Virus record (IMG/VR): IMGVR_UViG_3300028393_000022
Source of the DNA: a virus
Direction: 5' to 3' (one strand)
DNA length: 64,000 bases
The notes below the pieces were generated by a model that was not told where the DNA came from, did no database searches, and was given only the letters and a program-made list of their open reading frames with translations. Of the stretch, positions 2,382 to 61,900 are shown piece after piece. Made by a program: the position numbers and the translations under genes. The stretch's first letter is position 1, and every line of letters starts with the position of its first letter.

Positions 2382-3566
2382 ATGTATATTGAAGACCTAA
2401 TTACAGCACTAGTAATAAATTTTAGAGTGAGTATAAACCCGTTTGACTCAAACTTGGTTTATAGTTTTCACGAACAAATTTCTAGAGGCTCAGGTTTTAC
2501 AGAAAAACAGGCAACTGTGGCAGTAAAGATTTTAAAACGCCATGTGACCAAATTAAAGACATTGGGATTTAATGACGTAAATCAATATATTGAAAATCCC
2601 ACCTATAAACTGCCCATAAGGACCATTATGTCCCATAAACGTATGAGTATCATACCACACGATGTGTATGGACAAGTGATCAAAATGGAATTTCCATTCA
2701 ATGAGGCGTTGTTGGCAAGAATTAGAAATGAAAAAATGAGCCTTAACTACGCAAATTGGAACCCAGAAGAAAAATCATGGATTTTTTCACTGGATGAGCG
2801 GAGTTTGTCTTTTTTAACTAAAGTAGCCAACGAAGAAAATTTTCAGGTTGATGAAAAATTTGAAAATTATCAAAATCAAATCACAGAAATTGAAAGCAAC
2901 TTTGAGCAGTATGTGCCCATGCTTTCATATGATGGCAAAAATTTGAAATTTTCCAATATTTCACTAAAAATTCCTCAACCTGCTAATTCAAACATTTTAG
3001 AAAATTTGTTCGAGGCAAGAAAATTAGGAATTTTTACCTGGGATGAAAGCATACAAGAGACAGATGAGTGGAAAAATGCAGATTCCGTGACCAAGCAATT
3101 TCTACAAGTTTCACCCGATGAAGAATTTTCCATAAATTTAGAAAATACCACTATTTTTTCTCTCAAAGAGATTGTACAATATATGTCTCCTGTACTTTTT
3201 ATAATCCCAGGAGGTACTGAGATTGAAAAATTAGAGATGTGCTATGAATTTTTAAAAACGTTGAATATCGATAACGAAGAAATTAGTGTATTGTTTAGAC
3301 TACCCAAAGACACTGGTGAAAAATTCAATAATTTTGTCAAAGAACAAAAATTAAATTCTCCTATCAGCGAAAAAACCAAAGCAGTGTTTATCAGCAATAA
3401 GGTTCCTAAACCTGTTATTGATTCTAATGTTCATTTTAATGCCATTGTAAGTTTTAACTTTTTTAACATACATTATTCCATCAAAAATTTACTAAAATGG
3501 CACCCAAACGTGATTCAAATGACTGAGAAAAAACAACAAAGGACACTTAACTTTGTCAACATGTAA
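2382..3566 (+). CDS. Hypothetical protein with HARP-like segment, helicase-associated
   Basis: 394 aa; FPFNEALLARIR...WNPEEKSWIF resembles the HARP domain; overlaps the UvsW start. Confidence 0.55.
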   Translation: MYIEDLITALVINFRVSINPFDSNLVYSFHEQISRGSGFTEKQATVAVKILKRHVTKLKTLGFNDVNQYIENPTYKLPIRTIMSHKRMSIIPHDVYGQVIKMEFPFNEALLARIRNEKMSLNYANWNPEEKSWIFSLDERSLSFLTKVANEENFQVDEKFENYQNQITEIESNFEQYVPMLSYDGKNLKFSNISLKIPQPANSNILENLFEARKLGIFTWDESIQETDEWKNADSVTKQFLQVSPDEEFSINLENTTIFSLKEIVQYMSPVLFIIPGGTEIEKLEMCYEFLKTLNIDNEEISVLFRLPKDTGEKFNNFVKEQKLNSPISEKTKAVFISNKVPKPVIDSNVHFNAIVSFNFFNIHYSIKNLLKWHPNVIQMTEKKQQRTLNFVNM

Positions 3567-5013
3567 AATAATTATAAAAGACGAGGTCAATGTTAAGATA
3601 GAAAATCTCGACCTTGATACACGCAAGGCTTTGGTCAAAAAATTCAAGTACGAAGACCCTACTGCACGTTATAGACCCAGCTATAAATTGGGTCGGTGGG
3701 ACGGTGCTGTGAGTTTCTTCGGACTTGGTGGAACTACCTATCTTTCAATGTTGCCGCTGGTACTAGAGTATCTCGAAAACAAAAATTACTACATTGAGGT
3801 TGATGATTTACGCAATCCCATAGCCTTAGATTTTCCTCAAATTTCTGAGGATTTTTGGGGTGATAAAACATGGCCGGTAGGGCATCGTTTTGCCGGCGAA
3901 AAGATTAGGCTACGTGATGACCAAGTCGATGTAGTTAATATCTTTTTACAAAATCCACAGAGTATTCAAGAGATTGCCACAGGTTTTGGCAAGACGATTA
4001 CCACCGCTACACTGGCAAAAATATGTGAAAAATATGGTCGAACAGTGACCATTGTTCCTAACAAAAGTTTAGTTGAACAGACTGAAGAAGACTTTATCAA
4101 CTGTGGTTTAGACGTTGGTGTTTATTATGGTGATAGAAAAAATCTAGACAAAACACATACTATTTGCACTTGGCAAAGTTTGAATATTTTAGACAAAAAA
4201 TCCAAAAATATTGACGAAAATGAATTGCTGACATTGGCAGAATTACTCGACGGTGTTAATTGTGTCATGGTAGATGAGGTGCATATGGCCAAGGCTGAAG
4301 TACTGAAAAATCTATTGACACGCAATCTTGCCAATGCACCAATTCGGTGGGGACTAACTGGTACTGTGCCCAAGGAAGACTTTGAGTTTCAAAGCCTAAA
4401 AGCTAGCCTAGGTGAAGTTGTTAATAGAGTACAGGCTCACACATTACAAGAAGCTGGTATCCTCAGTACATGTCATGTCAATGTTGTTCAGACAGCCGAG
4501 TGGAAAGAGTTTGGTAGTTATCCAGAAGAATTAAAATTTTTAGTCACCGACGAAGACAGGATGAAATTCATATCAGAATTAATTAAAGATATTGGCAATA
4601 CAGGCAACACATTGGTGTTGGTAGATAGAATTGAATGTGGGGAATTTATTGTTAATCAAATTCCAGACAGCGTATTCATCTCAGGTAGAATCAAAACAAA
4701 AGATAGAAAAGAGGAATATGATGAAGTTAAGACTGCTACTAACAAGATTATTGTGGCGACTTACGGTGTGGCCGCTGTGGGTATTAATATCCCCCGTATT
4801 TTTAATCTGGTTATGCTGGAATCCGGAAAGAGCTTTACACGGGTTATACAAAGCATTGGGCGAGGCATTCGAAAAGCAGACGACAAAGACTTCGTCCAGA
4901 TCTGGGATATTACTGCATCAACGAAATATGCGAAGAGACACCTTACAGCACGGAAAAAGTTTTATAAAGACGCTAAGTACCCGTTCGAAATACAAAAAGT
5001 GAAATACAAATAA
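3553..5013 (+). CDS. uvsW: UvsW-like SF2 DNA helicase
   Basis: ATGFGKT, DEVH, GLTGT and QSIGRGIR motifs. Confidence 0.92.
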   Translation: MSTCKIIIKDEVNVKIENLDLDTRKALVKKFKYEDPTARYRPSYKLGRWDGAVSFFGLGGTTYLSMLPLVLEYLENKNYYIEVDDLRNPIALDFPQISEDFWGDKTWPVGHRFAGEKIRLRDDQVDVVNIFLQNPQSIQEIATGFGKTITTATLAKICEKYGRTVTIVPNKSLVEQTEEDFINCGLDVGVYYGDRKNLDKTHTICTWQSLNILDKKSKNIDENELLTLAELLDGVNCVMVDEVHMAKAEVLKNLLTRNLANAPIRWGLTGTVPKEDFEFQSLKASLGEVVNRVQAHTLQEAGILSTCHVNVVQTAEWKEFGSYPEELKFLVTDEDRMKFISELIKDIGNTGNTLVLVDRIECGEFIVNQIPDSVFISGRIKTKDRKEEYDEVKTATNKIIVATYGVAAVGINIPRIFNLVMLESGKSFTRVIQSIGRGIRKADDKDFVQIWDITASTKYAKRHLTARKKFYKDAKYPFEIQKVKYK

Positions 5014-6283: not shown

Positions 6284-6567
6284 AGTTTAAAAAAAAGCCA
6301 GTGGTAATTGAGGCAATTCAATTCGAATACTCTTCCATTGGGATTGAAAACTTAAAAGCGTTTTGTGGCAGCACTATTGGCAACATTAGTAAAGCCCGCC
6401 ATCCTACCGCCAAAGGGGAAGCAGAAATTGGCACATTAGAAGATGGCATCAACCTAACTGTGCAACACATCGCTACAGAAGGTGATTGGATCATTAAGGG
6501 TATACAAGGCGAATTTTATGCCTGCAAGCCAGATATTTTTGAAGCAACTTACGAACCTGCAGAATGA
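6280..6567 (+). CDS. Conserved phage protein (KKPVVIEA / GEFYACKPDIF type)
   Basis: KKKPVVIEAIQF, TLED, GDWIIKGIQGEFYACKPDIFEATYE are hallmark motifs of a widespread phage family. Confidence 0.8.
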   Translation: MKFKKKPVVIEAIQFEYSSIGIENLKAFCGSTIGNISKARHPTAKGEAEIGTLEDGINLTVQHIATEGDWIIKGIQGEFYACKPDIFEATYEPAE

Positions 6568-7259
6568 TTGCATTAGCGGATCAACCTTATAGCTGTGTGC
6601 ATTGCAACAAGGCCTTTATGAAAGAGAAGACCTTGGTTGCTCATATGTGTGAAAATAAAAGGCGTGCTCTGCAAAAAGATGAGAAGCGTGTTCAGGCCGG
6701 CTACATGGCCTATAACCGTTTCTATCAGCTGACTCAGAATAATAAAATCCCCAAGACCTATGAACACTTTTGCAACAGTGCATACTACAATGCCTTTGTA
6801 AAATTTGGTAGTTTTGTCAATAATGTTAATCCCTTGTATCCAGATAGGTTTATTGACTTTGTTATCAAGAGCGGTGTTAAATTAGATCACTGGTGCAGAG
6901 ATGCACTATATGATCAATACCTTTTTGAGATAGTTAAAGTTGAACCAGTTGAGTCCGCAGTACAAAGAACCCTGCAGACAATGATGGAATGGGGTGATGA
7001 GCACAGTGCAAATTTTGCACATTACTTTGACTATGTGAGCCTTAATAAAGCAGTGCATGATATCCTAAATGGTCGAGTTAGTTGTTGGGTTATTTTAAAT
7101 TCTAATGCTGGCAAAGCTATGGTAGGTAAGATGAATGACGAACAGTTGTCAATGATTGCACCTGCCTTTGAAATCAAATATTGGCAAAAGAAGTTTAGAG
7201 AATTCCCTGCAGATGTTGCACTCGTTAAAGAAATACTTAACGAAGTAGGCATTAAATGA
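6564..7259 (+). CDS. Zinc-finger-containing hypothetical protein
   Basis: N-terminal CxxC-x12-H-x-C (CVHC...HMC), C2H2/C2HC-like. Confidence 0.65.
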   Translation: MIALADQPYSCVHCNKAFMKEKTLVAHMCENKRRALQKDEKRVQAGYMAYNRFYQLTQNNKIPKTYEHFCNSAYYNAFVKFGSFVNNVNPLYPDRFIDFVIKSGVKLDHWCRDALYDQYLFEIVKVEPVESAVQRTLQTMMEWGDEHSANFAHYFDYVSLNKAVHDILNGRVSCWVILNSNAGKAMVGKMNDEQLSMIAPAFEIKYWQKKFREFPADVALVKEILNEVGIK

Positions 7260-9023: not shown

Positions 9024-9199
9024 AATTACCTAAAGTTGGAAGTAAATGGCGGTCTGGAAATTTTAAACATTTTTATGTTAAAGCAGTAGTAGAACTAGAA
9101 GGGCATACATGGGTCTATTATGGAGAGTATGGAACTGATCGAGAATATAGTTGTTATCTAGAAAGTTTTCTAGAAAGATTTAGTGAGGAACTAGTATGA
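9020..9199 (+). CDS. Small hypothetical protein (59 aa, not in ORF track)
   Basis: MKLPKVGSKW...YSCYLESFLERFSEELV; SD GGAG; ATGA-coupled at both ends. Confidence 0.7.
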   Translation: MKLPKVGSKWRSGNFKHFYVKAVVELEGHTWVYYGEYGTDREYSCYLESFLERFSEELV

Positions 9200-9552
9200 G
9201 ATTAGATGGATTTGTAGAAAAAGGTTGGGGTAGCGAATTCATATTTGCAACTAATGACAAGTACTGCGGAAAACTTTTAAAGTTCAATACTGGTGCAAAA
9301 TTTAGTATGCACTTCCATAGTGTAAAGGATGAATCATGGTATGTTCTTGATGGCAAGTTTAAAGTTATCGTAATCAATACTGCTAATGCCAGTCAAACGG
9401 AATATGAATTAGTCGGAGGAATGACTTGGCATAATCCTCCATTATTACCTCATCAAGTTATCTGTATTGAAGAAGGTACTATTATTGAAGTTAGCACACC
9501 TGATAGCGTTGAGGACAACTACAGAGTAGCCAAAGGCGATAGCCAAAAATGA
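9196..9552 (+). CDS. Cupin-fold sugar isomerase-like protein
   Basis: SMHFHSVKDESWYV...PH cupin metal motif; GWGSE; adjacent to heptose genes. Confidence 0.8.
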   Translation: MRLDGFVEKGWGSEFIFATNDKYCGKLLKFNTGAKFSMHFHSVKDESWYVLDGKFKVIVINTANASQTEYELVGGMTWHNPPLLPHQVICIEEGTIIEVSTPDSVEDNYRVAKGDSQK

Positions 9553-9944
9553 AAATAGTCGTCAATGGTACTTTTGATATTCTGCATCGCGGACATATTG
9601 AAATGTTAGAATATGCAAAAAGTCTTGGAGACCATTTACTGGTTTGCATCGATACTGATAGCCGAGTTAAGGAACTCAAAGGATCAGACCGTCCGATTAA
9701 CAATCAGGCTGATAGGGCATTCATGCTCAATGCATTAAAATGTGTAGATGCAGTTTGGATGTTCGCCAATGAAGCCGAATTAGAATATATTCTAGAAACT
9801 TATCAACCAGACGTTATGGTCAAAGGTAGCGACTACGAACACAAACGTATTGTAGGAGAACAGCTTTGCAAAAAAATTAAATTTTATGAACTCGTCGAAC
9901 AATACTCAACAACTAACCTCATTCAACGTATTACTGATCGGTGA
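9549..9944 (+). CDS. Heptose-1-phosphate adenylyltransferase-like (RfaE domain II / HldC)
   Basis: NGTFDILHRGH (HxGH), KGSDRPIN, VKGSDY, YSTTNLI. Confidence 0.85.
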   Translation: MKIVVNGTFDILHRGHIEMLEYAKSLGDHLLVCIDTDSRVKELKGSDRPINNQADRAFMLNALKCVDAVWMFANEAELEYILETYQPDVMVKGSDYEHKRIVGEQLCKKIKFYELVEQYSTTNLIQRITDR

Positions 9945-10668
9945 TAGTTGCACTGATGAATACAAGATCGGAACTGTAGATAGATTAAGTCCCGAGGCTC
10001 CTGTCCCCATTATAAAATTAACAAATGAATATTCACTACCGGGTATGTCTGCAAATGTTCTAAGGAACCTACAGAACTTAGACATCAATCCAGACTTTGT
10101 CACTAACGATAGTGAAATTAAGAAAACAAGATACATTGATCAAAAATCTGGACAGCATCTATTAAGAGTAGATACTGAACCCGCAGTTGTTCCTTGGGAT
10201 GGTAAGACTCCTAACCATATTAAATCATATGATGCTATTTTAATATCAGATTACAACAAGGGTTTTCTAACATATGAAAGTGTAGAACAAGTTATTCGTT
10301 CTGCTAATTGTCCTATATTCATTGATACAAAGAAACAAGACTTATCTAGATTTAGTGCCGCTTGGACATATATAAAAATCAACGAATCAGAATACAAGAA
10401 TCGGTATAGTATTCCAAAACATTTAATTGTCACTCTTGGAGACAAAGGCGCCCAATTTAACGGTAAGATGTATTCAACTACACAAGTAGAAGTTATGGAC
10501 GTATGTGGATGCGGTGATACATTTATGTCTGCATTGGCTGCTCAATATCTCTTTACAAAAGACATAGAAGCTGCTATAATATTTGCTAACGTGGCGGCAG
10601 GTATAACTGTGCAACACCGCGGAAACTACGCACCTACACTTGACGAGATTAGAAATGCCGGATATTGA
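9886..10668 (+). CDS. Heptose-7-phosphate kinase-like PfkB (RfaE domain I / HldA)
   Basis: RLSPEAPVP, ISDYNKG, DVCGCGDTF. Confidence 0.85.
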   Translation: MNSSNNTQQLTSFNVLLIGDSCTDEYKIGTVDRLSPEAPVPIIKLTNEYSLPGMSANVLRNLQNLDINPDFVTNDSEIKKTRYIDQKSGQHLLRVDTEPAVVPWDGKTPNHIKSYDAILISDYNKGFLTYESVEQVIRSANCPIFIDTKKQDLSRFSAAWTYIKINESEYKNRYSIPKHLIVTLGDKGAQFNGKMYSTTQVEVMDVCGCGDTFMSALAAQYLFTKDIEAAIIFANVAAGITVQHRGNYAPTLDEIRNAGY

Positions 10669-11233
10669 TTTAGATTTTCCAGATAGGACACGGGCACTTG
10701 ATGTTATCAAACACATCCCTGCGGCTATGTCAGATAATGGAACTTTTAAAAAGCACAACACTGGTGTATATTGTCATTCTATTCCTTACAATCCCCTAAC
10801 CGAAACTGCCAGTATAGACTACAAACAAGCAGAGGATCGCGGCTACTTTAAGATCGATTTCTTAAATGTCAGTGTCTATAAAGACATTCGAGATGAAGCT
10901 CACCTAACTAGATTACTCAATACGGAACCATTATGGGATTTATTATTGCAAGACGAATTCGTGAATCTGTTATTTCATGTGAACGGACATGGGGCAATTT
11001 TGAGGATGATGAAGCCGACGAGTATCGAGGAGTTAGCCGCTGTATTGGCTATTATCCGCCCGGCAAAACGATATCTGATTGGGCAAGATTGGTCCGTCGT
11101 GAAGAACGAAGTTTGGCAGAAACCCAACAGCGATGAATATTATTTTAAGAAGAGTCACGCCCATAGCTACGCAGCATTAGTAGTCATACATATGAATCTT
11201 ATCTGCGAAGGTATTAGTTATGGTTTTTCTTAA
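10655..11233 (+). CDS. Miniature DNA polymerase III alpha (DnaE)-like protein
   Basis: MPDIDLDF, KHNTGVY, GYFKIDFLN, PTSIEELAAVLAIIRP and FKKSHAHSYA match DnaE motifs in order within 192 aa. Confidence 0.8.
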   Translation: MPDIDLDFPDRTRALDVIKHIPAAMSDNGTFKKHNTGVYCHSIPYNPLTETASIDYKQAEDRGYFKIDFLNVSVYKDIRDEAHLTRLLNTEPLWDLLLQDEFVNLLFHVNGHGAILRMMKPTSIEELAAVLAIIRPAKRYLIGQDWSVVKNEVWQKPNSDEYYFKKSHAHSYAALVVIHMNLICEGISYGFS

Positions 11234-11591
11234 CCGATCTAACTAACTGAATCGATTTGCGTTTAACACGCTTTTCTGCAATTTCACTAAGATTTACCAA
11301 CGGACCAAACATTAACTCTGCATCTTTGGAGTTAAACGTTTTTATAAAGGGTCTAAATATTTGCATTTCTTTCTTTAGAAAAATATTAATTGGTATTTTT
11401 CTATTGCTTTCCCACCACCAAACTTCACCCATTTCTAAAAACAATTGACGTTCTGTTTCGCCTGTAATCATTGATATGTCATATATGCTGGCAACATAGT
11501 CGTCGAAATTTATAACGATACCTACATATTCCTTATCATTGGACTTGACGCAGGAAATAAAGGGGAAGTTGTCTTGAATTTGTTCTTTCAT
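11214..11591 (-). CDS. Conserved hypothetical protein
   Basis: 125 aa, WWWESNRKIPINIFL; convergent with the mini-DnaE. Confidence 0.65.
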   Translation of the reverse strand: MKEQIQDNFPFISCVKSNDKEYVGIVINFDDYVASIYDISMITGETERQLFLEMGEVWWWESNRKIPINIFLKKEMQIFRPFIKTFNSKDAELMFGPLVNLSEIAEKRVKRKSIQLVRSVKKNHN

Positions 11592-12458: not shown

Positions 12459-13466
12459 GTGAATGATATACAATCTGCATTATTAGCATTACTGCCTCCA
12501 AAAAGAAAACTGACATCCGGTGGATGGACAAGTTTTAATGCGCCCTGCTGTCATCATAGAAATGAAGGCAGAGATGATAGACTTCGTGGCGGCATCAAAG
12601 TAGAAAATGATGGATTTGTCTATCATTGCTTTAATTGCGGATTTGCCGCAGGTTGGACTCCGGGCAAACTGTTAAGTAAAAATACCAAAGACTTATTCAA
12701 ATGGGTAGGTATGAGCGAGTTTGAGATAGGTAAACTGAATCTGGCCACTATGAAGATCAAAGATGATCAGCCAGTATTCAAAAAAGCATTTAATCTAACA
12801 CTGCTAGAAAGACCCTTGCCTGACGGAACAATGTCTATAACGGATTGGATCGATACTGCACATTTACCCGATATTTCTGAAGACATTGGTAAAATAATAG
12901 AATATATTTTAGGTCGCGGAATGAAGATGGAATGGTATAACTGGATGTGGTGTGCAAATCCAGGCTACAAAGATCGCGTGTTCATTCCTTTTTATCAAGA
13001 CGGAAAAGTTGTAGGATATACAGGACGTAAGATTACAGAAGGTAAGCCCAAGTATCTAACTGATAGTCAAAGTGGCTATGTGTTTAATATAGATGCCCAG
13101 GACTACACTAGAAAGTTTGTAATTGTATCAGAAGGACAGTTTGACGCTATTGCAGTGGATGGTGTTGCCATAATGACCAATGAGCCCAATGATGCTCAGA
13201 TTGCTAGATTAACTGCACTAGGTAGAGAAGTTATTGTAGTGCCGGACAGAGATCGTCCTGGTGCAAAAATGTTGAAGCACGCCATACAGAATAACTGGAC
13301 TGCCAGTTTGCCGCCTTGGGGTGATGATGTCAAAGACATTGCTGAAGCTGTAAAGAAATATGGACGCTTGTATGTGTTAGCCACAATCTTACACTACAAG
13401 GTCACGGGAGAGATAAAAATAAATCTACTGAAGAAGAAACTAGAAGCAATTAAAGATGATGAATAA
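12459..13466 (+). CDS. DNA primase, gp61-like
   Basis: Zn-binding PCCHH...HCFNC; TOPRIM EGQFDA and PDRD; adjacent to helicase. Confidence 0.9.
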   Translation: MNDIQSALLALLPPKRKLTSGGWTSFNAPCCHHRNEGRDDRLRGGIKVENDGFVYHCFNCGFAAGWTPGKLLSKNTKDLFKWVGMSEFEIGKLNLATMKIKDDQPVFKKAFNLTLLERPLPDGTMSITDWIDTAHLPDISEDIGKIIEYILGRGMKMEWYNWMWCANPGYKDRVFIPFYQDGKVVGYTGRKITEGKPKYLTDSQSGYVFNIDAQDYTRKFVIVSEGQFDAIAVDGVAIMTNEPNDAQIARLTALGREVIVVPDRDRPGAKMLKHAIQNNWTASLPPWGDDVKDIAEAVKKYGRLYVLATILHYKVTGEIKINLLKKKLEAIKDDE

Positions 13467-14922
13467 AAAAGAAAAACAACCTAAACCAAACTACAACTAC
13501 GACATTCAAAAACTGTATCTCGAAATGTTTATGAGTGATGCAGAGACATTTGTCCGCTGCCAAAATATTTTTGATCCATTAAACTTTGACCAACGACTGC
13601 AAGACATTGCTTCATTTATTACCAAGTATGTAGATGAATACAAGGTCATGCCCGAAGCTACGATTGTTAATGCCAGCACAGGTGCGGATCTAAATCCTGT
13701 ACAACTTCCCAAAGAAAACTACGACTGGCTGATGAATGAGTTTGAAAACTTCAGTCGACATAAAGGACTAGAGCGAGCAATTATCAACTCAAGTGATTTG
13801 TTGGAAGCAGGCGATTATGGTCCAGTTGAGAAGCTGATCAAGGATGCTATTCAGATCAGTCTAAATAAAGACATGGGTACTGATTACTTTGAAGACCCTA
13901 GAGCTCGATTGAGTAAACTAAAGGACGGCAATGGACAAATATCTACAGGATGGCCTAGCATTGATAAGAAACTGTATGGAGGTTTCAATAGAGGTGAGCT
14001 TAATATATTTTGCGCTGGCTCCGGTGGTGGCAAGAGTTTGTTTCTGGCTAATATGGGTGTTAACTGGGCGCTCCAAGGGCTCAACGTGCTGTACTTAACA
14101 TTTGAATTGAGTGAAGGCCTGGTGTCTATGCGTTTAGACAGTATGATGACAGGTATCTCAACTCGTGAAGTGTTTAAGAGCATCGATGACGTTGAACTCA
14201 AAGTTAAGATGTTGGGCAAGAAGGCAGGTAATCTCCAGGTCAAGTATATGCCATCGGGCAAGAACTGTAATGATATTCGAGCATACTTGAAAGAGTATCA
14301 AGTTAAGAAAGGCTGCAAGCCTGATGTTATTCTAATTGACTATTTGGACTTGATGATGCCGTTGAGTGTCAAAGTTAGCCCAAGTGATTTGTTTGTTAAG
14401 GACAAATATGTATCAGAAGAGATCCGTAATTTGGCGATGGAAACACAATGTATTACAGTCACAGCTAGCCAGTTAAACCGTAGTGCTGTTGAAGAAATTG
14501 AATTTGATCATAGTCACATCTCAGGTGGCCTGAGTAAGATTATGACAGCAGATAACGTGATTGGTATCTTTACAAGTCGTGCAATGAAGGAACGTGGACG
14601 TTATCAAATCCAGTTTATGAAAACAAGGTCTAGTAGTGGTGTTGGACAGAAAGTTGATCTAGAGTTTAATGTAGAAACACTACGCATCAGTGATCTAGGT
14701 GAGGATGAAGATAGCGGTAGTAGCTTCAGTCAACAAAAGACGCAAGGCGGCGGTAGCAGTGTTTATGCAGGATTGAAACGTACTAGTTCAGTTACAGAAC
14801 AAGTTGACGAGAACGGAGAGATCAATCCCACAGTGGGCTCAAACTTTCCCAAGAGCAAGGCAGCTAATCATGCAGCCGGTATTCGAAACATACTGGCCAC
14901 AATGAACAGCGAAAAAGATTAA
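13456..14922 (+). CDS. Replicative DnaB/gp41-like helicase
   Basis: AGSGGGKS, TFELSE, IDYLDL, TASQLNRS, KTR. Confidence 0.93.
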   Translation: MMNKKEKQPKPNYNYDIQKLYLEMFMSDAETFVRCQNIFDPLNFDQRLQDIASFITKYVDEYKVMPEATIVNASTGADLNPVQLPKENYDWLMNEFENFSRHKGLERAIINSSDLLEAGDYGPVEKLIKDAIQISLNKDMGTDYFEDPRARLSKLKDGNGQISTGWPSIDKKLYGGFNRGELNIFCAGSGGGKSLFLANMGVNWALQGLNVLYLTFELSEGLVSMRLDSMMTGISTREVFKSIDDVELKVKMLGKKAGNLQVKYMPSGKNCNDIRAYLKEYQVKKGCKPDVILIDYLDLMMPLSVKVSPSDLFVKDKYVSEEIRNLAMETQCITVTASQLNRSAVEEIEFDHSHISGGLSKIMTADNVIGIFTSRAMKERGRYQIQFMKTRSSSGVGQKVDLEFNVETLRISDLGEDEDSGSSFSQQKTQGGGSSVYAGLKRTSSVTEQVDENGEINPTVGSNFPKSKAANHAAGIRNILATMNSEKD

Positions 14923-22507: not shown

Positions 22508-22582
22508 TGGTCCGGCGTAGAGGAATCGAACCTCTATAATGACTTTAGAAGAATCATGTCCTATCCGTTGAACGAACGCCAG
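22508..22582 (-). tRNA. tRNA-Arg (UCU)
   Basis: Cloverleaf: CTGGCGT/ACGCCGG acceptor, TGATT-CTTCTAA-AGTCA anticodon arm, GGTTCGATTCC T arm, encoded CCA; own promoter at 22590-22618. Confidence 0.92.
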
Positions 22583-31709: not shown

Positions 31710-31787
<78 letters not shown>

Positions 31788-34796: not shown

Positions 34797-35630
34797 ATGA
34801 CAGCCACCACAGGATCCACCCTACTTGTTTCGGACTACAACAGTATTCAAACCACCGTATCTAACATACTGGGATTAAATCCTCAAGGTTATGGACTACC
34901 CTATGTGGCCAGTCGCCCTGTGTCTAGATCGGACAAGGTTCGAGCTTCAGATTGGAAGAATCTCCAATCTGATCTCAACATGATAAACAAGCATGTGACC
35001 GGCAGCTACACGCAGCTCACTACCGGTACTCGAAGCCAGCCAATCACTTCGGATATCCCAGCTTCTTACACAGACTTATCTAACTTTCTACTGGACTCCG
35101 GCAATGGTGATGCATCTAGGAGATTTACCTGTGCTGAAAGTGAATATTATGTGGACCCTGTGACGTCCAACACCATTAACTATACTGGGGGTGTCAGTAC
35201 ACGAACTACAGTGTGGGGCATACAGGAATCATACATAACACACGTGGTTCGTGTTGGGTTTCCCACAGCAGATACCATGGTCTACTTCTTTAACCTGGGC
35301 AGTTATATTACCTTTTTGCCATTTCGTGTGGGTGCAGGGCTGAACAGTGCGGACTATGAATGGTTTACTTTTATCAATTGGCTACGTTCCGGAGATCCGG
35401 CTGTGCCTGTGCTGCACTATGATAGAAGCCACAGTATAGTGCATAATCCAGGCAGTACGATCAACAACATATACAATGCCACTACTTCTACCTCGGGTAT
35501 CAGTATTGATGTATCAGTGACCAAAAGTCTAAATGGAAAATACCTAGACTTTACAGTTGCCTATCGAAATAACGATATTGCAGCCATTGTAATTGACCCC
35601 TCAACAAGAATTTGGACAACCTTGGTATAA
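34797..35630 (+). CDS. Probable virion structural protein
   Basis: TAAATA upstream; Thr/Ser-rich; DYNSIQ...GYG...FFNLG. Confidence 0.55.
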   Translation: MTATTGSTLLVSDYNSIQTTVSNILGLNPQGYGLPYVASRPVSRSDKVRASDWKNLQSDLNMINKHVTGSYTQLTTGTRSQPITSDIPASYTDLSNFLLDSGNGDASRRFTCAESEYYVDPVTSNTINYTGGVSTRTTVWGIQESYITHVVRVGFPTADTMVYFFNLGSYITFLPFRVGAGLNSADYEWFTFINWLRSGDPAVPVLHYDRSHSIVHNPGSTINNIYNATTSTSGISIDVSVTKSLNGKYLDFTVAYRNNDIAAIVIDPSTRIWTTLV

Positions 35631-35634
35631 TATA

Positions 35635-37005
35635 ATGGCCAGCATTTTCACCTACACCATCATCAATAACGACCCTGTTCTTCCTGCGGTCCTTAATTAC
35701 ATAACGATTGCTACCAATCTTACTCAAATACAGCATCATTTACAGTTATCTGATTGGCCAAATTGGCAAATTCCATGGAGCTCTGCACCCTATGACGACT
35801 TTCAAGGCTCTTCCACTATTAGAACTAGCTCCAAACCTTATGTAGGGCTAGTAACAGATGTGATCAAAACCTACCAAGGTAACGTTGTTTCATCTGGCAT
35901 CTACTATATGAAATTGAGCAACAATACAGATATTTCAGCAGGGTATGCAGTATCTGGAGAAAATTTTACTGGTCCTACGGTAGTCGCTACCAGTGGCACT
36001 ACATGGGTTCAGCTGAGTACAGATCCGGTTCCGAGTATACCATTGGTAATTGGTTCGTCTAATATTACGTTCACACCTCCCGAACAATTGTTGATATTAG
36101 AAAACACGCTGGGTTTGTCAGCAGGCTGGACGGCATCTGGCAATGGATATTCTGGGCAAACAATCATTTCTGTTAAAAACGAAAGTATTTTGGTAATGAG
36201 TGGGCCTCCGAGCACTACTCCTACCGGAAGCATATTATTCACTTCTAATTTAGACCAAATGATCACTGTGACTCCGGGCGGAGGAACACAGGTATTTTCG
36301 ATGGACTACAACAATGTGACTTCGGCAATTGGGACCTACACTTCAGCAGTATCTTTACATTTTACGTTGGGCGGTAGTAGCGTAGTTAAAAATATCACTA
36401 ATTTATATGCAATTAATAGTGCCCCAGTTTTTGATGTGTATAATCCAAGCTATGATTGGGGTGGCACCGGCGGCGATGGCGGCCCTGGAGGAGGTTGTGG
36501 CACCGGCGGCGATGGCGGCAGTTGTGGTGCGGCAGTGTGTGTTACTGCTGGAACATTGATCAGAATGGGTGATGGTACATTAAAAGTTGTAGAAGATATA
36601 GTAGTAGGTGATACTGTACTCACTACAAATGGCATTTCTAATGTGGTAAAATTAAGAAGGTCAGTTCTGGAACATAGATGGATTTGGGTAATTAACGAAC
36701 ATCTCGAAATCACTGGCGATCATTTGATCAAGACCACGGCAGGATGGAAATGTGTTGAACCTGATTCTTATTTGAACCGCAAGGCCAATGGTCTTGCTCC
36801 ACATCAAGTGCAATATGACAAAATAAACATTGGTGATATTCTAATAACTGAAAATGGAACTGAAGAATTTACAACAATCCGAGCAAAGTATTTTAGTCCA
36901 ACGACAATTGTTTATACAATGTATGTAGACGGAATCTCCGAATATTTCGCTAGCAGTATCTGTATTGACGGAATGCTAATGCCAGTAGATTATAGAACTA
37001 ATTAA
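35635..37005 (+). CDS. Virion protein with Gly-rich linker and C-terminal Hint domain
   Basis: CVTAGTLIRMGDG (36538), VEDIVVGDTV, ITGDH, GDIL, VYTMYVDG. Confidence 0.8.
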   Translation: MASIFTYTIINNDPVLPAVLNYITIATNLTQIQHHLQLSDWPNWQIPWSSAPYDDFQGSSTIRTSSKPYVGLVTDVIKTYQGNVVSSGIYYMKLSNNTDISAGYAVSGENFTGPTVVATSGTTWVQLSTDPVPSIPLVIGSSNITFTPPEQLLILENTLGLSAGWTASGNGYSGQTIISVKNESILVMSGPPSTTPTGSILFTSNLDQMITVTPGGGTQVFSMDYNNVTSAIGTYTSAVSLHFTLGGSSVVKNITNLYAINSAPVFDVYNPSYDWGGTGGDGGPGGGCGTGGDGGSCGAAVCVTAGTLIRMGDGTLKVVEDIVVGDTVLTTNGISNVVKLRRSVLEHRWIWVINEHLEITGDHLIKTTAGWKCVEPDSYLNRKANGLAPHQVQYDKINIGDILITENGTEEFTTIRAKYFSPTTIVYTMYVDGISEYFASSICIDGMLMPVDYRTN

Positions 37006-40329: not shown

Positions 40330-41784
40330 ATGGATCATCAAAAAATATTTCAAACAACAAAAGAACAGTTAGATGCAGTGAGTCCTACTTTCTGTGTTGC
40401 AAAATGGAACCAGCTCAGTCTCCACTTAGGAACAGGGTTGAATCATAGTTGTCATCATCCTGCCCCACACAAAATCTCTATTGACGAAATTAAAATAAAC
40501 CCTTCCGCCTTACATAATACATCTTATAAGAAAGAACAACGAAAATTAATGTTAGAAGGTAAACGTCCTAGTGAATGTGATTACTGTTGGCGAGCCGAGG
40601 ATGCAGTAATAAATGAAAATGAAAGCAACATTTTCAGCGAACGAATTACAAAAAGTGCAGATGCTTGGGCATTGCCTCATATAGACAAAATCAAGTCTCT
40701 GCCTTGGGATGCGGATGTTAATCCTACTTATTTAGAAGTTTCGTTTGACACTGCCTGCAATTTTAAATGTGCATACTGTAGTCCTGGTTATTCATCTACA
40801 TGGAAACAAGAGATAGAACAGTACGGTCCTTACAATCTACAAGATATAACCTTACACAGTTTAGATTATCTAAAAGAGACAGGCCAAATGCCGTTACCTA
40901 TAACAAAACCAAATCCATACATTGATGCATTCTGGAAATGGTGGCCCGATGTTGTAGGCGACTTGCATACTTTTAGAATCACAGGTGGCGAACCGTTGAT
41001 GAGTAAGCAGGTCTTTAGAGTGTTGGACTTCTTGATAGAGAACCCGCAACCGCAAATGGAATTTAGTATTAACTCTAATCTTGATGTTCCTAAAAATCTC
41101 ATCAATCAATTTATTGAGAAGATGCAGACTATTCAAGAAAAGAAAGCTGTTAAGAGTTTCAAATTGTTTACCAGTAACGAAGCACACGGGAAACAAGCAG
41201 AATACATTAGATTTGGATTAAATTACAATCGTTGGTTGGTAAATTGTCATAGGGTTTTAGCTGAAATTCCCGACAGTCATCTTACTGTAATGGCAGCTTA
41301 CAATATATTGAGCATGCCTAGTTTTAAATTACTAATGGATGATATACTAGACATGAAAAGAAAGTATACTTTACAACCTGTTAGAAAGAACCCTGTATCA
41401 TTAGACATACCCTATATTCGCTGGCCCGAATTCTTAGCACCATGGGTTGCGGATTCTAGATTCCTTCCTATGGTTGAAGATGCTGTTACTCATATGTTTC
41501 AAAACTTGCACCAATTGAATTGGCCTCCTTTATGTGGAAAAGGGTTCTTCGACTTTGAAGTAAACAGGATTGAAAGACTGTACTTTACTGTAAGAGATGA
41601 GATGATGCGTAGTCACAAGGATCCCAATGTGATTGGTCCTTTGCGGGCACAATTTGCAGAATATATCACTGAGTACGATCTTCGAAGAGGTACTAACTTC
41701 GTAGAAACATTTCCCGAACTAGCAGACTTCTATCAAGAAGCTAAAATGTACACTGTAAGATGGCAAACGAAAGGCCCTTTCTAA
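40330..41784 (+). CDS. Twitch-domain radical SAM protein
   Basis: FCVAKW...SCHH, ECDYCW, CNFKCAYC, TGGEP. Confidence 0.9.
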   Translation: MDHQKIFQTTKEQLDAVSPTFCVAKWNQLSLHLGTGLNHSCHHPAPHKISIDEIKINPSALHNTSYKKEQRKLMLEGKRPSECDYCWRAEDAVINENESNIFSERITKSADAWALPHIDKIKSLPWDADVNPTYLEVSFDTACNFKCAYCSPGYSSTWKQEIEQYGPYNLQDITLHSLDYLKETGQMPLPITKPNPYIDAFWKWWPDVVGDLHTFRITGGEPLMSKQVFRVLDFLIENPQPQMEFSINSNLDVPKNLINQFIEKMQTIQEKKAVKSFKLFTSNEAHGKQAEYIRFGLNYNRWLVNCHRVLAEIPDSHLTVMAAYNILSMPSFKLLMDDILDMKRKYTLQPVRKNPVSLDIPYIRWPEFLAPWVADSRFLPMVEDAVTHMFQNLHQLNWPPLCGKGFFDFEVNRIERLYFTVRDEMMRSHKDPNVIGPLRAQFAEYITEYDLRRGTNFVETFPELADFYQEAKMYTVRWQTKGPF

Positions 41785-41785
41785 T

Positions 41786-43216
41786 ATGAGCGAACACCTA
41801 ATACATTGGCGCAATGTACACCTGAATTCAATAAGCCCTAGCTTCTGTGCAGCTAAATGGTATAATGCCAGCATACACCTAGGTAGCGGTCAAACAACCA
41901 GTTGTCATCTACCGTTGCCACATCCCATTGATCTAGAACAGATTAAAACTAATCCATCTGCTATCCACAACACTGATCATAAAAAGCAGATGCGTAAAAT
42001 GATGTTGGAAGGAGCAAAGCCTGCAGAGTGTTCTTACTGTTGGAAGATAGAAGGCATTGGTAGAGATAATCCAAGTGATAGGATCTATAAAAGTGAAATC
42101 TACAAGAATGAAGACATACAACAATTAAGAGACCTACCTTGGGACGCTGACTCTATACTTAAAACATTAGAAATAAGTTTTGACAGACAATGTAATTTTG
42201 CCTGTAGTTATTGCAATGCCGGTTATAGTTCTACATGGTCAGAAGATCTAAAGAAGAACGGTGCCTATCAAAACTTTTCAGCACACGGCGGCGGCGGAGC
42301 ATACCAGTCAGACGGTAGCTGGTCTGAAACTAACGGACGTCATTTAGAAAACAATCCTTATATAGATGCTTTCTTTCAATGGTGGCCTGAATTATCACAG
42401 ACACTGCAAGAAATACGAATCACCGGCGGCGAAGCAACAGTGAGTCAGAACTTTTGGCGATTTGTAGATATACTGCATACCACCGACGCTAGTAATTTAA
42501 GATTTGCCGTTAACAGTAATTTAGGTATGAGTGATAAGGCTCTTGAAAAGCTGATAGGCATTACCAAGACATTACCAATTAAAGAATTTGATTTATATAC
42601 CAGTAATGAAAGCTTCGGAGCACACGCCGAGTATATTAGAGACGGTTTAGTATATAAACAATGGCGTGATAATCTTTCAACTTTTATAGAAAATGCCAAT
42701 TTTAGGGCAGTGACTATAATGATGACTATTAATAATCTTTGCCTGTTTAGTATAACGGAGTTCTTAGATGATATCATTGAGTTAAAATCAAAGTATGGAC
42801 ATCATAGGCCCAACTTGTCATTAAACATGTTAAGATGGCCGAGCTTTATGAGTCCTCTTGCTTTGCCGGATGAAGTCAAACGAGAATTACATGCTAAATT
42901 AAAAGTTTGGTATGATAAAAATAAAAACTCTAAACTATTTGTTGATGGCGAAATGGCACAGATTAAACGTCTACTCGACTACATAGAAGTGCTAGACAAG
43001 GGGCATGTGTTTATGCCCGATGATAAGAAGTCATTGCTTGTTGATTTTAAAAGTTTCTTTACACAATATGATCAAAGACGAAATAAGAACATACTAGAAA
43101 CTTTTCCAGAGATCGCTTCCTGGTATAATTCAATAGAACTGCCTAAGGTGTTTCCTATTATGGAACTGAATAAGCACGGAATATCTAACTATGAAACGGG
43201 TGTATATGAACCCTAA
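41786..43216 (+). CDS. Twitch-domain radical SAM protein (paralog)
   Basis: FCAAKW...SCH, ECSYCW, CNFACSYC, TGGEA. Confidence 0.9.
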   Translation: MSEHLIHWRNVHLNSISPSFCAAKWYNASIHLGSGQTTSCHLPLPHPIDLEQIKTNPSAIHNTDHKKQMRKMMLEGAKPAECSYCWKIEGIGRDNPSDRIYKSEIYKNEDIQQLRDLPWDADSILKTLEISFDRQCNFACSYCNAGYSSTWSEDLKKNGAYQNFSAHGGGGAYQSDGSWSETNGRHLENNPYIDAFFQWWPELSQTLQEIRITGGEATVSQNFWRFVDILHTTDASNLRFAVNSNLGMSDKALEKLIGITKTLPIKEFDLYTSNESFGAHAEYIRDGLVYKQWRDNLSTFIENANFRAVTIMMTINNLCLFSITEFLDDIIELKSKYGHHRPNLSLNMLRWPSFMSPLALPDEVKRELHAKLKVWYDKNKNSKLFVDGEMAQIKRLLDYIEVLDKGHVFMPDDKKSLLVDFKSFFTQYDQRRNKNILETFPEIASWYNSIELPKVFPIMELNKHGISNYETGVYEP

Positions 43217-51130: not shown

Positions 51131-52612
51131 ATGAACTACATTGGATTAAGTTGCGGGTTCCATGATGCCGCAGTAAGTGTTATTAACAGCTACGGTGAGA
51201 TTGTATTTGCCGGCCATAGCGAACGATACAGCAAAAACAAGCATGATGATAGTCTATGTGAGACCGTCGTTAAGGATGCATTGGCATATACCGTAGAAGA
51301 TTACTCTGTACACTATTACGAACGTCCTACATTAAAGTATCTGCGTCAATTAATAGCAGGACAAAAGCCATCGGTTAGCAATCTGCGGGCCAAGAACATT
51401 ATTGGCAAAGACATAATATCTTTACTAGATAATAAAACAGTTCATACACATAACCATCATCTGAGCCATGCAGCCGCAGGATTCCAAACAAGTCCTTTCG
51501 ATGATGCTACTGTTGTAATCATAGATGCCATTGGCGAGTTTGATACAATTACAATATGGCATGCAGACTATGATAGTGATACAGGCCGAGCTGAATATAA
51601 GAAGTTATGGTCTCAACGGTATCCTAACAGCATAGGATTATTCTATAGTGCAATGACTGACCGTGTGGGCCTACGTCCCTTAGATGAAGAATACATATTA
51701 ATGGGTATGGCAGCATATGGGTCTAACACTGTAGATTTAAAACAACATCTAATTGCAGACGAGAACAAATTGACCTTTAAGTATAATCTACATAAAGGTA
51801 TGGATCCGTTCTTTGAACAAGGCGCTGACAAATACGACATCGCAGCCAGCAGCCAAGCTCTAGTTGAAACACTAATTACCACAGTAATAGGCAAGGCTCG
51901 TAGGTTAGGCCATAGTAAGAATCTAGTCTATGGCGGAGGTGTTGCCCTTAACTGTTCAGCAAATAGATTGTTGGGCAACTACTATGACAACATTTGGATC
52001 ATGCCCAATCCGGGTGATGCTGGCAGTAGTTTAGGTGCAGCCGCATTGGGATATCGATGCAAAGTACAGTGGACAGATGCGTTCCTTGGGCATGATATAC
52101 CGGGCAACTATCCAGTTGACAAGATTATAAAAGAACTATACACTAATAAGATAGTAGGGGTGGCTAACGGTCGAGCAGAGTTCGGCCCTAGAGCATTAGG
52201 CAACCGCAGCCTACTAGCAGACCCCAGAGGTCCAGACATCAAGGATAAAGTAAATGACATCAAAAGACGACAGAAGTTCCGACCCTTTGCGCCCGTTATT
52301 TTGGAAGAGTTGGCTGGCGATTACTTTGATATGCCTGCTGGTTTCAGTAGCAGTAGGTATATGCAGTCAGTCGCTCATTGCCGGCATCCTGACCTATATC
52401 CTGCTATCGTTCACTATGATGGGACTAGTCGCGTCCAGACTGTTGCAAACGATGGCAGCGGAATACGAAAGCTCTTGGAAAAGTGGTACGCCTTAACAGG
52501 CTGTCCAATGTTGTTAAACACCAGTCTTAACATACGAGGCGAGCCAATGGTCAATGACAGAGCCGATGCAGATCGCTTTGAACAACAGTATAAGATCACA
52601 GTCTGCTCCTAA
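51131..52612 (+). CDS. Carbamoyltransferase (NodU/CmcH family)
   Basis: FHDAA, HHLSHAA, DAIGE, GGVALN, EFGPRALGNRS, FRPFAP, LNTSLN. Confidence 0.93.
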   Translation: MNYIGLSCGFHDAAVSVINSYGEIVFAGHSERYSKNKHDDSLCETVVKDALAYTVEDYSVHYYERPTLKYLRQLIAGQKPSVSNLRAKNIIGKDIISLLDNKTVHTHNHHLSHAAAGFQTSPFDDATVVIIDAIGEFDTITIWHADYDSDTGRAEYKKLWSQRYPNSIGLFYSAMTDRVGLRPLDEEYILMGMAAYGSNTVDLKQHLIADENKLTFKYNLHKGMDPFFEQGADKYDIAASSQALVETLITTVIGKARRLGHSKNLVYGGGVALNCSANRLLGNYYDNIWIMPNPGDAGSSLGAAALGYRCKVQWTDAFLGHDIPGNYPVDKIIKELYTNKIVGVANGRAEFGPRALGNRSLLADPRGPDIKDKVNDIKRRQKFRPFAPVILEELAGDYFDMPAGFSSSRYMQSVAHCRHPDLYPAIVHYDGTSRVQTVANDGSGIRKLLEKWYALTGCPMLLNTSLNIRGEPMVNDRADADRFEQQYKITVCS

Positions 52613-58824: not shown

Positions 58825-58908
58825 ATGAGCCAATCTACTATTATCCATTCCAGTCTGGTAAATCCAGCCAACCCTCAAAATTCTAAAGAAGTGAAGGACA
58901 GACAATGA
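58825..58908 (+). CDS. Putative 27-aa leader ORF coupled to the fibre gene
   Basis: ATG 5 nt after TAAATA; TGA overlaps the fibre ATG (ATGA). Confidence 0.35.
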
Positions 58909-61900
58909 CTATTCAATATATCAACACAGGATCGAGTGCAAACGCAGGCAATGGTGATAGTCTAAGATCTGCATTTATTAAGGTTAATAATAATTTTGCA
59001 TATTTGAGTACAGCTACTGGCACAGGTGGCATAGGAATTGTAAATTCTGGCCTAAAAGGAAGATTAGCATATTATGCCAATACAGGTACAACACTAAGTT
59101 CGATACCATCGATCAGTTATACTACCTCTACACCATACCCTGTATTGCAAATTGGTAACAATTCTTCTTCTCCGTCATTGGTAATTGTAAGCAATGGTTA
59201 TAATAACTCTCCTGTTGGAGGATTTACATTTTCTCAACATCACAATAATCCAGGCGCTACGAATTTTAATTATTATAGATCACGAGGTACTTCGGCAATA
59301 AACACCAATGTACTTGCTGGCGACAGTATTATTGACATTGCATTTGGAGGTTATAATAACGGAATCAGTATTGCTGCACAGTTTACAGTGTCTGTAGAAG
59401 GAACTCCTACTACACCCGGTCACATCCCTGCAAAATATCAAATTGGTACAGACAATGGTACAAGTTTTGCGTTTGGCGCAGAATTAAGTAGTTCTAGTAC
59501 TTGGAAAATTAATAAATTAAGCAATCTATCTACTACGACTAATTCTATTAGTGTTTTTACCGATCTAGTACCTGATCAAACGGATCTACGAAATTTGGGT
59601 AGCACAAGCAGCCAATGGAAAAATTTATATGTAAATGGTTCTGTCAACTTAAACGGCATCGAAATAGGTTACGGTTATACTGGTAGTAGAGGTTTCCAAG
59701 GTGTTCAAGGAAATACAGGAACACAGGGTATCCAAGGTGTTCAAGGAAATACAGGAACACAGGGTGTTCAAGGAAACACAGGAACACAGGGTATCCAAGG
59801 TCCTATTGGTGTAACAGGTGATCAAGGAGCAATAGGTAATACAGGAACACAAGGCGTTAGAGGATTTACCGGTGCTCAAGGTATTTCAGTTACATTAATT
59901 GGTAGTACAAGTACAAGTGCAGGATTACCAATTCCAGGTAATCCGGGTGATGGATGGATTGTTACGGATACTGGTAATTTATGGTTCTGGAACACTGTGG
60001 CTCAAACATGGAATGATATTGGAGCCATTGTTGGACCACAGGGCGACCCCGGTATACAAGGTATTAAGGGCGACCAAGGTCTTCGAGGAAATACCGGTGC
60101 TCAAGGAGTTCAGGGAGTTCAAGGCGAACAAGGAGTTCAAGGAGTTCAAGGGGCCAAGGGTGATCAGGGAGTTCAGGGAGTTCAAGGCGAACAAGGAGTT
60201 CAGGGTAATACTGGAGAACAGGGTGATCGAGGTTATACTGGTAGTCGTGGAAATACTGGCTATGTAGGATCACAGGGTGACATTGGCTATGTAGGTAGTA
60301 AAGGTGACCAAGGTGCTCCGGGCGGTAATGCCAATACAGCAAATTTTGTATTCACTAATAATCAAATAACTGTTGCCAACGATGGAAATATAAATCTGTT
60401 AACAAATGGTAATAATTGGACATTTAGTAATTCTGGTACATTGACATTGCCAACCGGATATAGTATAGGTGGTAATACTAATGGTAATGACGGTATTGCT
60501 TTGACTACAGACCGTGGTACAATATTGTTTGGAAATCATCCTGAACAATGTACTCCTCCTACTAGCGGATCACATTTCCACATAATGAGAGAGAATAACA
60601 GCACCACAGAGTTATTCTTTGGTGATGATTACAACTATGTTAAACTACCTAAATCAGATAACGGTAATGGTGTAGAAATTGGTACCAATGCCGATCATGT
60701 TTGGCGATTTGACACCGATGGTGTATTAAACTTCCCCAACAATAACGGACAGATAGGACAACTAACATCACCATATACAGGATTAGAGTTCCGCACTGGA
60801 TCAGGTGCTGATTGGATTGGTATTAGTTACGGTGAGATCAACGACAACAACACCAGTTACTTTTACTTTGACAAAGATGGTAGTGATTACACAACTGCCA
60901 ATCATCGTGCCCATTTACAGATTAAGAGTCCGGAGCAGGCCTATGGCGCAAGCCACCTAGAATGGTTGTTCGATGCTGACGGTAATTTAACAATACCCCA
61001 TGGTGGTAAGTTAGGATTTGATCTACTTGCCGATCATAATTATGGAACAATAGTATTACAATCAGCAGGAGGCACCGGGACTTATGCGGCAATTGCCGGA
61101 CATTGGTCGTATGTTATGGCTTCTGATAATGAAGTTCGTATACAAACCGGGATTGAAGGTAGCCCGTATTACGATTGGACATTTGGCGCAGATGGTACCA
61201 CAAAATTCCCTAACAATACATTGGACGCTGGCACTAGTACAATTGCCATTAGATCAACAGTGGGTGCCGAACTAGATTATATCAAAGAAAATGTTCAAAA
61301 TACAGCAAATGAAGTATTGAGTGCGTATGTGGGCGTTGATAACAACGGTCCATACATGGCCAACAGTGCCTTAAACAGCAGCAACACTGATGCTAATTTT
61401 AGTATCTGGAGTGTTGACAGTAAGGGTAATTTGGTAACATCAATCGTACATGAAATTTCCACTGGCACCGATGTTGGTGATATTGTTGATATTGATGGCA
61501 ACAGTATTATCTATACAGTAGCCAGTGAAACTCCTCCAACTCGTGCTCCTAATGGACGCTTATGGTACAACAGTGTAGAAGGTCGCATGTATATTAGATA
61601 CACGGATCTATGGGTTGATGCCAGTCCCACAGTTATTCCACCTATCAGCACTTACTTGGAAGGATTGACTGTCGATGGCACAACTATAGGCACAGTTGAT
61701 TCCAGTGCTACAGTCAGTGTTTCCAGTGGCATGGACAATGTTTGGACATTTGACAACGCTGGAACTTTGACATTCCCAGCAGGATATGCTTTGCCAAACA
61801 CTATGGGCACAGCAGGACAGGTATTGTCTGTAAGTACAAATTCTAATGTTTTATATTGGACAACAGCCAGTGGCGGAGCCAGTTTCAAATACGCAAGAGT

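Follow-up and report, generated by a model that had tools for sequence, protein, structure and literature searches.

The gene studied here lies at positions 10655 to 11233 (plus strand) of a 64,000-nucleotide stretch of DNA from an uncultured jumbo phage (hereafter the window) and encodes, without internal stop codons, a protein of 192 amino acids starting with MPDIDLDF. We refer to this protein and its homologues as the C-unit, and to a separate GRGS-containing protein of about 168 amino acids as the N-unit. The C-unit gene is embedded in a module of the T4-like replication and recombination type, which runs from RecA/UvsX-like, UvsY-like, and UvsW-like helicase genes through several small genes to the C-unit and continues with a convergent 125-codon gene, a virion-protein-like gene, a DnaG-like primase gene, and a DnaB/gp41-like helicase gene. 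This order matches that found in Escherichia phage 121Q and Sinorhizobium phage Phosso. The UvsW-like helicase gene (3553 to 5013, plus strand; Pfam ResIII, Helicase_C, and UvsW_N) is syntenic with 121Q gp10, and the primase gene (12459 to 13466, plus strand; DNAG_N) and the DnaB/gp41-like gene (13456 to 14922, plus strand; DnaB_C) follow each other as they do in 121Q and Phosso.

Three overlapping genes, encoding a cupin, a cytidylyltransferase-like protein, and a PfkB-family kinase, occupy positions 9196 to 10668 (plus strand) immediately upstream of the C-unit gene. By sequence, the trio resembles a split HldE-type heptose-nucleotide pathway. Since the PfkB gene directly precedes the C-unit gene in just 17 of the 76 related loci, this heptose-nucleotide module represents a variable insertion. 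We assigned the start of the C-unit to the ATG at 10655, which gives an overlap of 14 nt with the PfkB-like gene, and not to the listed TTG at 10640, which would add five residues, as the homologues start with M-P-D-I-D. About 75 nt upstream of this ATG, still within the 3'-terminal part of the PfkB-like coding sequence, a consensus scan detected a sigma-70-like promoter match (10552 to 10580, plus strand; TTTACA-17-TATAAT with TG, 11/12), which could possibly be the C-unit gene's own promoter. The scan of the region returned 19 sites, as pattern matches only, versus 11.1 expected from shuffled sequences.

On its downstream side, the C-unit gene meets a convergent gene (11214 to 11591, minus strand) whose 3' end overlaps its own by 20 nt and whose 125-amino-acid product belongs to phrog_11637 (E value of 8.6e-33). 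We found this gene in 76 of the 80 related loci; in at least 64 of 74, it immediately followed the C-unit gene in convergent orientation, an arrangement also seen for 121Q gp17 and Phosso CDS 438. A protein-atlas search with the phrog_11637 neighbor gave no usable match. The linkage extends throughout the clade and makes the product the leading candidate for a further subunit, unless it reflects nothing more than synteny. Farther upstream, a gene at 6564 to 7259 (plus strand) encodes a 231-amino-acid protein of phrog_11058 with weak N-terminal C2H2-like zinc-finger matches below the cutoff. It was found in 72 of the 80 related loci, has a homologue in 121Q gp14, and is linked context only. No signaling or effector genes adjoin the C-unit.

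Several other features of the window were recorded. Between 16000 and 36000, the G+C content is 0.45 to 0.50, compared to 0.33 to 0.42 elsewhere, open reading frames of at least 150 codons are few, and the skew is opposite; this block contains a tRNA-Arg(TCT) gene (22508 to 22582, minus strand) and a tRNA-Met(CAT) gene (31710 to 31787, minus strand). An open reading frame of 470 codons (35593 to 37005, plus strand) gave weak Hint/Vint matches around residues 315 to 386 (E value of 9e-5, below the cutoff) and may encode an intein-like or Hedgehog/intein-type autoprocessing module. In the regions 40330 to 43216 and 51131 to 52612 (both plus strand), two adjacent open reading frames of about 480 codons gave weak radical-SAM matches, with a clear carbamoyltransferase (PF16861/PF02543) nearby, and together these genes may form a cluster for the modification of nucleotides or sugars. 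Finally, an open reading frame of more than 1,698 codons (58905 to 63998, plus strand), open at its 3' end, had many tail-fiber and collagen-like PHROG matches.

We then analyzed the relationship of the C-unit to DnaE. Its motifs occur in the DnaE order, namely PDIDLDF (residues 2 to 8), KHNTGVY (33 to 39), GYFKIDFL (63 to 70), KPTSIEELAAVLAIIRP (120 to 136), and YFKKSHAHSYA (163 to 173). The phrog_11778 profile, annotated as DNA polymerase, matched with an E value of 1.1e-64, residues 3 to 185 aligning with profile positions 8 to 193 of 197. The match to phrog_405, which comprises full-length phage DnaE proteins, had an E value of 1.2e-8 and covered the K-x-D strand and the first fingers segment. 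In the Pfam scan, the fingers family PF17657 scored 14.6 bits against a cutoff of 22, PF07733 was not reported, and there was no PHP match. phmmer aligned the protein collinearly with Mycobacterium tuberculosis DnaE1 (residues 1 to 14 on 413 to 426, 55 to 140 on 568 to 666, and 161 to 173 on 774 to 786). A profile of 86 homologues searched against the PDB matched only Pol III alpha chains (E value of 2e-5), and its alignment with Escherichia coli alpha placed residues 54 to 139 on 539 to 641 and residues 151 to 177 on 740 to 767. K66 and D68 thereby correspond to K553 and D555, and F164 to H168 correspond to F756 to H760, while the phmmer and profile alignments together equate D3, D5, and D68 with D401, D403, and D555. 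The motifs thus represent true DnaE homology, well beyond chance. The preliminary description of this locus had reported DnaE motifs in order and all three catalytic aspartates retained, and both observations hold, D3, D5, and D68 being invariant in the 86 homologues. At the nucleotide level, a megablast with 3 kb against cultured phages gave no match.

The AF2 model of the C-unit, based on an alignment of 86 sequences, had a pLDDT of 94.6 and a pTM of 0.87, and its top 17 Foldseek matches were all family-C polymerases. With VIA-align, 185 to 189 of the 192 residues were superimposed on the Pol III alpha subunits of Taq, E. coli, and M. tuberculosis and on PolC with Z scores of 9.3 to 9.6 (Taq alpha 461 to 841: Z 9.6, 188 residues, rmsd 3.6; E. 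coli alpha 400 to 781: Z 9.3, 185 residues, rmsd 4.0; PolC 971 to 1299: Z 9.4), whereas the best unrelated chain reached a Z score of 3.8. The comparison with Pol III alpha that the preliminary description had proposed thus yielded a family-C fold. The 192 residues cover a stretch of 382 residues of E. coli alpha (400 to 781), and nothing in the protein corresponds to alpha before 400 or beyond about 781. Within this stretch, alpha 414 to 538 (about 125 residues) is reduced to about 40 residues, and alpha 642 to 739 (about 98 residues) is reduced to about 11.

Compared to bacterial DnaE, the C-unit therefore shares the aspartate triad, K553, and the RP and FNKSH motifs, and its entire length is collinear with alpha 400 to 781, but it lacks the PHP domain, the thumb (alpha 432 to 511), about 90 residues of the fingers, and everything past about residue 781, that is, the rest of the fingers and the beta-binding, HhH, OB, and tau-binding regions. 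This is in good agreement with the initial account, in which PHP, most of the thumb and fingers, HhH, and OB were listed as absent. No conserved C-terminal clamp-binding tail was found, the last seven or so residues being unconserved and of low pLDDT. Because the model covers alpha 400 to 781 only, the GS triphosphate-binding motif is missing as well, and the palm is incomplete on this one chain. In bacterial DnaE, the first palm half belongs to the same polypeptide, whereas here it resides on another one.

Homologues of the C-unit were detected by tblastn in 96 cultured jumbo phages, with lineages of the Rak2, 121Q, PBECO4, GAP32, CBB, PA5oct, Atu_ph07, Phosso, RsoM2USA, and XacN1 types. Phosso and Atu_ph07 harbor the closest cultured relatives, at about 50% identity. 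In IMG/VR, 427 stretches were confirmed to encode a C-unit relative. The family comprises at least 7,984 protein clusters, almost all of 189 to 204 amino acids, and an exhaustive search yielded 424 C-unit clusters at 50% identity. All 80 related loci that were fetched carried an intact gene, and pairwise dN/dS had a median of 0.12 and a maximum of 0.24, indicating purifying selection. D3, D5, K66, D68, R135, and P136 were invariant in the 86 homologues, down to 30% identity, and the fingers motifs RP and F-N/K-K-S-H were conserved. The view that the deletions do not reflect random decay, previously based on their position between motifs, is thus borne out by the intact loci, the low dN/dS, and a length that is constant across thousands of clusters.

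In Pol-beta-like nucleotidyltransferases, the DxD strand must be preceded by a helix-G[GS]-strand element, to which the triphosphate binds. Since the C-unit starts exactly at the DxD strand, it is devoid of this element for the incoming triphosphate. A Pfam search of related genomes identified a small separate open reading frame matching only positions 13 to 96, approximately, of PF07733. Of the six related genomes and contigs that were searched, five contained this N-unit, and the remaining one is only 40% complete. In 121Q, it is gp56, which is annotated as "DNA polymerase III alpha subunit" and lies 31 kb downstream from gp16, the C-unit. In Phosso, the PF07733 search located it about 224 kb from the C-unit, and in the three closest large IMG/VR contigs (60 to 83% complete), it is 160 to 185 kb away on the same strand. 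The distance between the two genes thus ranged from 31 to 224 kb in the five genomes measured. In Ralstonia phage RsoM2USA (MG752970.1), by contrast, the C-unit match (133312 to 133872) and the N-unit match (138067 to 138393), both on the minus strand, are separated by only about 4 kb, so that the spacing of the halves is highly variable.

The N-unit family corresponds to phrog_11127 (E value of 3.5e-36) and comprises 5,690 clusters of about 168 amino acids. The N-units identified share an invariant G-x-G-R-G-S-S motif and end in F-L-(R/K/N), and it is after the equivalent of this end that DnaE runs on with NPER..PDxDxD. The AF2 model of the N-unit had a pLDDT of 81.9, and its residues 59 to 168 aligned with E. 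coli alpha 271 to 393 (Z 9.8) and with M. tuberculosis DnaE1 303 to 413 (Z 11.0), so that the alpha GRGS region (361 to 364) falls on the N-unit. As a single sequence, the N-unit P0122 matched E. coli alpha 323 to 392 (4e-4), and the N-unit alignment profile searched against the PDB gave nothing at 1e-3. The first 58 or so residues (in P0122, encoded at L086:1498-2004, minus strand) were modeled as a small alpha/beta element with moderate pLDDT. They could be aligned neither with Pol III alpha nor with any other solved chain and represent a phage-specific N-terminal extension. Since the N-unit corresponds to alpha 271 to 393 and the C-unit to alpha 400 to 781, the two halves abut without overlap, and the break lies in the loop that connects the GS strand to the DxD strand, at alpha 393/400.

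No N-unit was found in the 64-kb window. An HMM of five N-units, run over all six frames with filters off, gave a best E value of 0.59, and tblastn with the 121Q and Phosso N-units gave no match, which agrees with the initial statement that the window holds no complementary fragment. The halves are 160 to 185 kb apart in the nearest relatives, and we therefore expect the partner gene to lie outside the window.

The two units nevertheless go together. Both were present in each of the examined relatives that was sufficiently complete (121Q, Phosso, and all three relatives that were at least 60% complete), and the cultured lineages with an N-unit mirror those with a C-unit, Escherichia phages, for example, contributing 34 records to each. 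We also identified a natural fusion of the two, P0342, a protein of 375 amino acids in which phrog_11127 spans residues 8 to 180 and phrog_11778 spans residues 190 to 374, separated by a linker of nine residues. The C-terminal part starts with A-D-F-D-I-D. The gene (L094:1066-2193, plus strand) lies on a single 2.4-kb ENA metagenome contig, and no other fused form was found, either among longer homologues, which are weak evidence in this respect, or in an IMG/VR scan with P0342. In a quick tree, rooted at the midpoint only, P0342 was nested beside the split proteins P0325 and P0335, although not with strong support (SH-aLRT of 88). The separate GRGS protein and this fusion support one of the options raised in the preliminary description, namely that the C-unit is one subunit of a split polymerase. 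We also considered trans-splicing by a split intein, but the N-unit sequence ending in FLR runs straight into the MPD of the C-unit, with no room for intein halves and no +1 nucleophile. In the absence of intein features, any assembly of the two units must be noncovalent.

A full-size family-B polymerase (PolB) was present in four of the five relatives searched, with open reading frames of 857 to 892 codons or more. The window itself harbors the RecA/UvsX-, UvsY-, and UvsW-like genes, the primase, and the DnaB/gp41-like helicase but no PolB, as judged by tblastn with the relatives' PolB. A stand-alone DnaQ-like exonuclease is encoded by 121Q gp9 (RNase_T, E value of 6.7e-15), and such exonucleases have also been reported for CBB_280 (PMC5259590) and Atu_ph07 gp671 (PMC6102473). 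At the position of 121Q gp9, between the uvsY-like and uvsW-like genes, the window has an open reading frame of 394 codons (2382 to 3566, plus strand) with no Pfam or PHROG match and no similarity to gp9, and tblastn found no gp9-like exonuclease anywhere in the 64 kb. RNase_T was found in only one of three incomplete near relatives. On these grounds, a proofreading partner is not established, the syntenic open reading frame being unrelated and RNase_T being present in just one of these three relatives.

Taken together, these data make it probable that the gene encodes the C-unit of a minimal split Pol III alpha, which would combine with the N-unit into a heterodimer. The active site of this heterodimer would be composed of both chains, and the enzyme would serve as a distributive DNA polymerase in an auxiliary role. 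The C-unit would supply the second half of the palm, i.e., the PDxDxD strand and the K-x-D strand with the third metal-binding aspartate, together with a shortened piece of the fingers carrying the RP and F-K-K-S-H motifs. The N-unit would supply the first half of the palm, whose GRGS loop would hold the triphosphate of the incoming nucleotide. We infer that the two most likely associate noncovalently and rebuild the palm sheet and a single active site across their interface, an assembly indirectly supported by the fusion P0342 and by the adjoining alpha ranges of the two halves. Such a pair would polymerize DNA by extending primers distributively, without a thumb, clamp contact, or intrinsic proofreading, and would assist the PolB replicase in short-patch synthesis, repair, gap filling, or primer extension. 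Since the pair is devoid of PHP, thumb, clamp-binding, HhH, and OB elements and the relatives encode a PolB replicase, it is probably auxiliary and not the main replicase.

Three observations call for caution regarding this model. The halves are usually encoded 31 to 224 kb apart, which is unusual for obligate subunits and counts against pairing, a pair lacking the thumb and most DNA-binding elements may perform templated synthesis poorly on its own, and the search for fusions yielded a single one, on a short contig. It is conceivable, though clearly less likely, that the core of N-unit and C-unit cannot hold DNA alone and that the phrog_11637 and/or phrog_11058 proteins replace the thumb or clamp parts, which would make it a novel type of multisubunit family-C enzyme, or that the core carries out nonreplicative nucleotidyl transfer. 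We give the same low weight to a specialized nucleotidyltransferase, in which the two units would share a composite active site but perform tailing, primer-independent synthesis, or signal synthesis instead of templated polymerization, perhaps with neighboring gene products as subunits. The loss of the thumb, clamp-binding, HhH, and OB parts, the reduction of alpha 414 to 538 and 642 to 739 to about 40 and 11 residues, the PolB replicase already present in these phages, and the tightly linked small phrog_11637 gene are all compatible with such an enzyme. In the ternary complex of Pol III alpha, however, the fingers region with RP and FNKSH adjoins the nascent base pair and the template, and precisely these motifs (RP and F-N/K-K-S-H) are conserved in the C-unit. 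Moreover, the gene resides within a replication and recombination module, next to which there are no signaling or effector genes.

The remaining explanations assign the C-unit a function by itself, or none. That the 192-residue protein works alone as a minimal nucleotidyltransferase, as the preliminary description had envisaged, would fit its three invariant metal-binding aspartates, the invariant K66, and a model that is confident without a partner. This is nonetheless very improbable, since the protein starts at the DxD strand without the GS element, which is a separate protein in five of six relatives and is fused to the C-unit in P0342; a self-contained polymerase or nucleotidyltransferase would lack its triphosphate-binding element. 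We consider it just as improbable that the C-unit is a noncatalytic decoy or regulator binding host replisome partners, another of the earlier suggestions. Its small size and the possible sigma-70-type promoter, a pattern match hinting at early expression, would suit this role, but the alpha surfaces for beta, tau, and epsilon (PHP, the beta-binding motif, and the C-terminal domain) are the very parts that are missing, and the decoy reading is further disfavored by the dN/dS of 0.12 and by catalytic aspartate, lysine, and arginine residues that are invariant in 86 sequences down to 30% identity, a degree of conservation that a decoy does not require. The idea of a captured dnaE in the course of decay, to which the length of about one sixth of DnaE might point, is refuted by the 80 intact loci out of 80, the same low dN/dS, the constant length, and the confident fold, and retains only a negligible probability.

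The family to which the C-unit belongs has been described before. Iyer, Anantharaman, Krishnan, Burroughs, and Aravind (2021, Viruses 13:63; PMC7824862) defined a "minimal split DNA polymerase III alpha" in group 2.2 jumbo phages, i.e., those similar to Rak2, 121Q, PA5oct, and Atu_ph07. Reading from sequence, they assigned Mg2+ and template binding to the C-terminal unit, proposed that the split alpha may cooperate with PolB in one-strand synthesis or in repair, and speculated on a model of the primordial Pol III (PMC7824862). An earlier phage paper had listed a "truncated" alpha, CBB_328, of 172 amino acids (PMC5259590), and another had used the plain annotation "DNA polymerase III alpha" (PMC6102473). 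The PaBG and RsoM2USA papers contained nothing on a split alpha, and we found no experimental study of it, biochemical or genetic, in the literature searched. The family is thus known and defined by bioinformatics, and our result is a correct rediscovery; the novelty implied in the preliminary description did not stand, given the report of Iyer et al. (PMC7824862).

The protein studied here agrees with the split Pol III alpha C-unit (phrog_11778) in family profile, length, PDxDxD start, and replication-module context, and its relatives share the co-occurring N-unit and PolB, so that nothing essential is different. Compared to other phrog_11778 members, it is a copy from an uncultured phage, with about 50% identity to the closest cultured members (Phosso and Atu_ph07), and is preceded by the heptose-nucleotide module. 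It differs from the DnaE-like polymerases of phrog_405 (group 3.2 jumbo phages, for example, Bacillus phage G, as well as numerous phages of Streptomyces and Bacillus), to which it showed only the weak match mentioned above; these are single-chain enzymes of about 1,100 amino acids with a PHP domain, close to host DnaE, that serve as the phage replicase.

What the present analysis adds is the structure-based localization of the break at residues 393/400 of E. coli alpha, figures for selection and abundance, the fused form, and the convergent neighbor. Among the known relatives of the bacterial replicase, the split family is the smallest, with an active site apparently distributed over two polypeptides, and both halves are very abundant in environmental jumbo phages, with thousands of clusters each. 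Should the heterodimer prove active, it would delimit the smallest catalytic core of family-C polymerases, provide a tractable model for the modular assembly of Pol III, and prompt the question of why phages with a PolB replicase retain an additional polymerase that lacks a clamp. If instead the multisubunit or nonreplicative reading is true, the system would represent a working model of the primordial Pol III, as speculated by Iyer et al.
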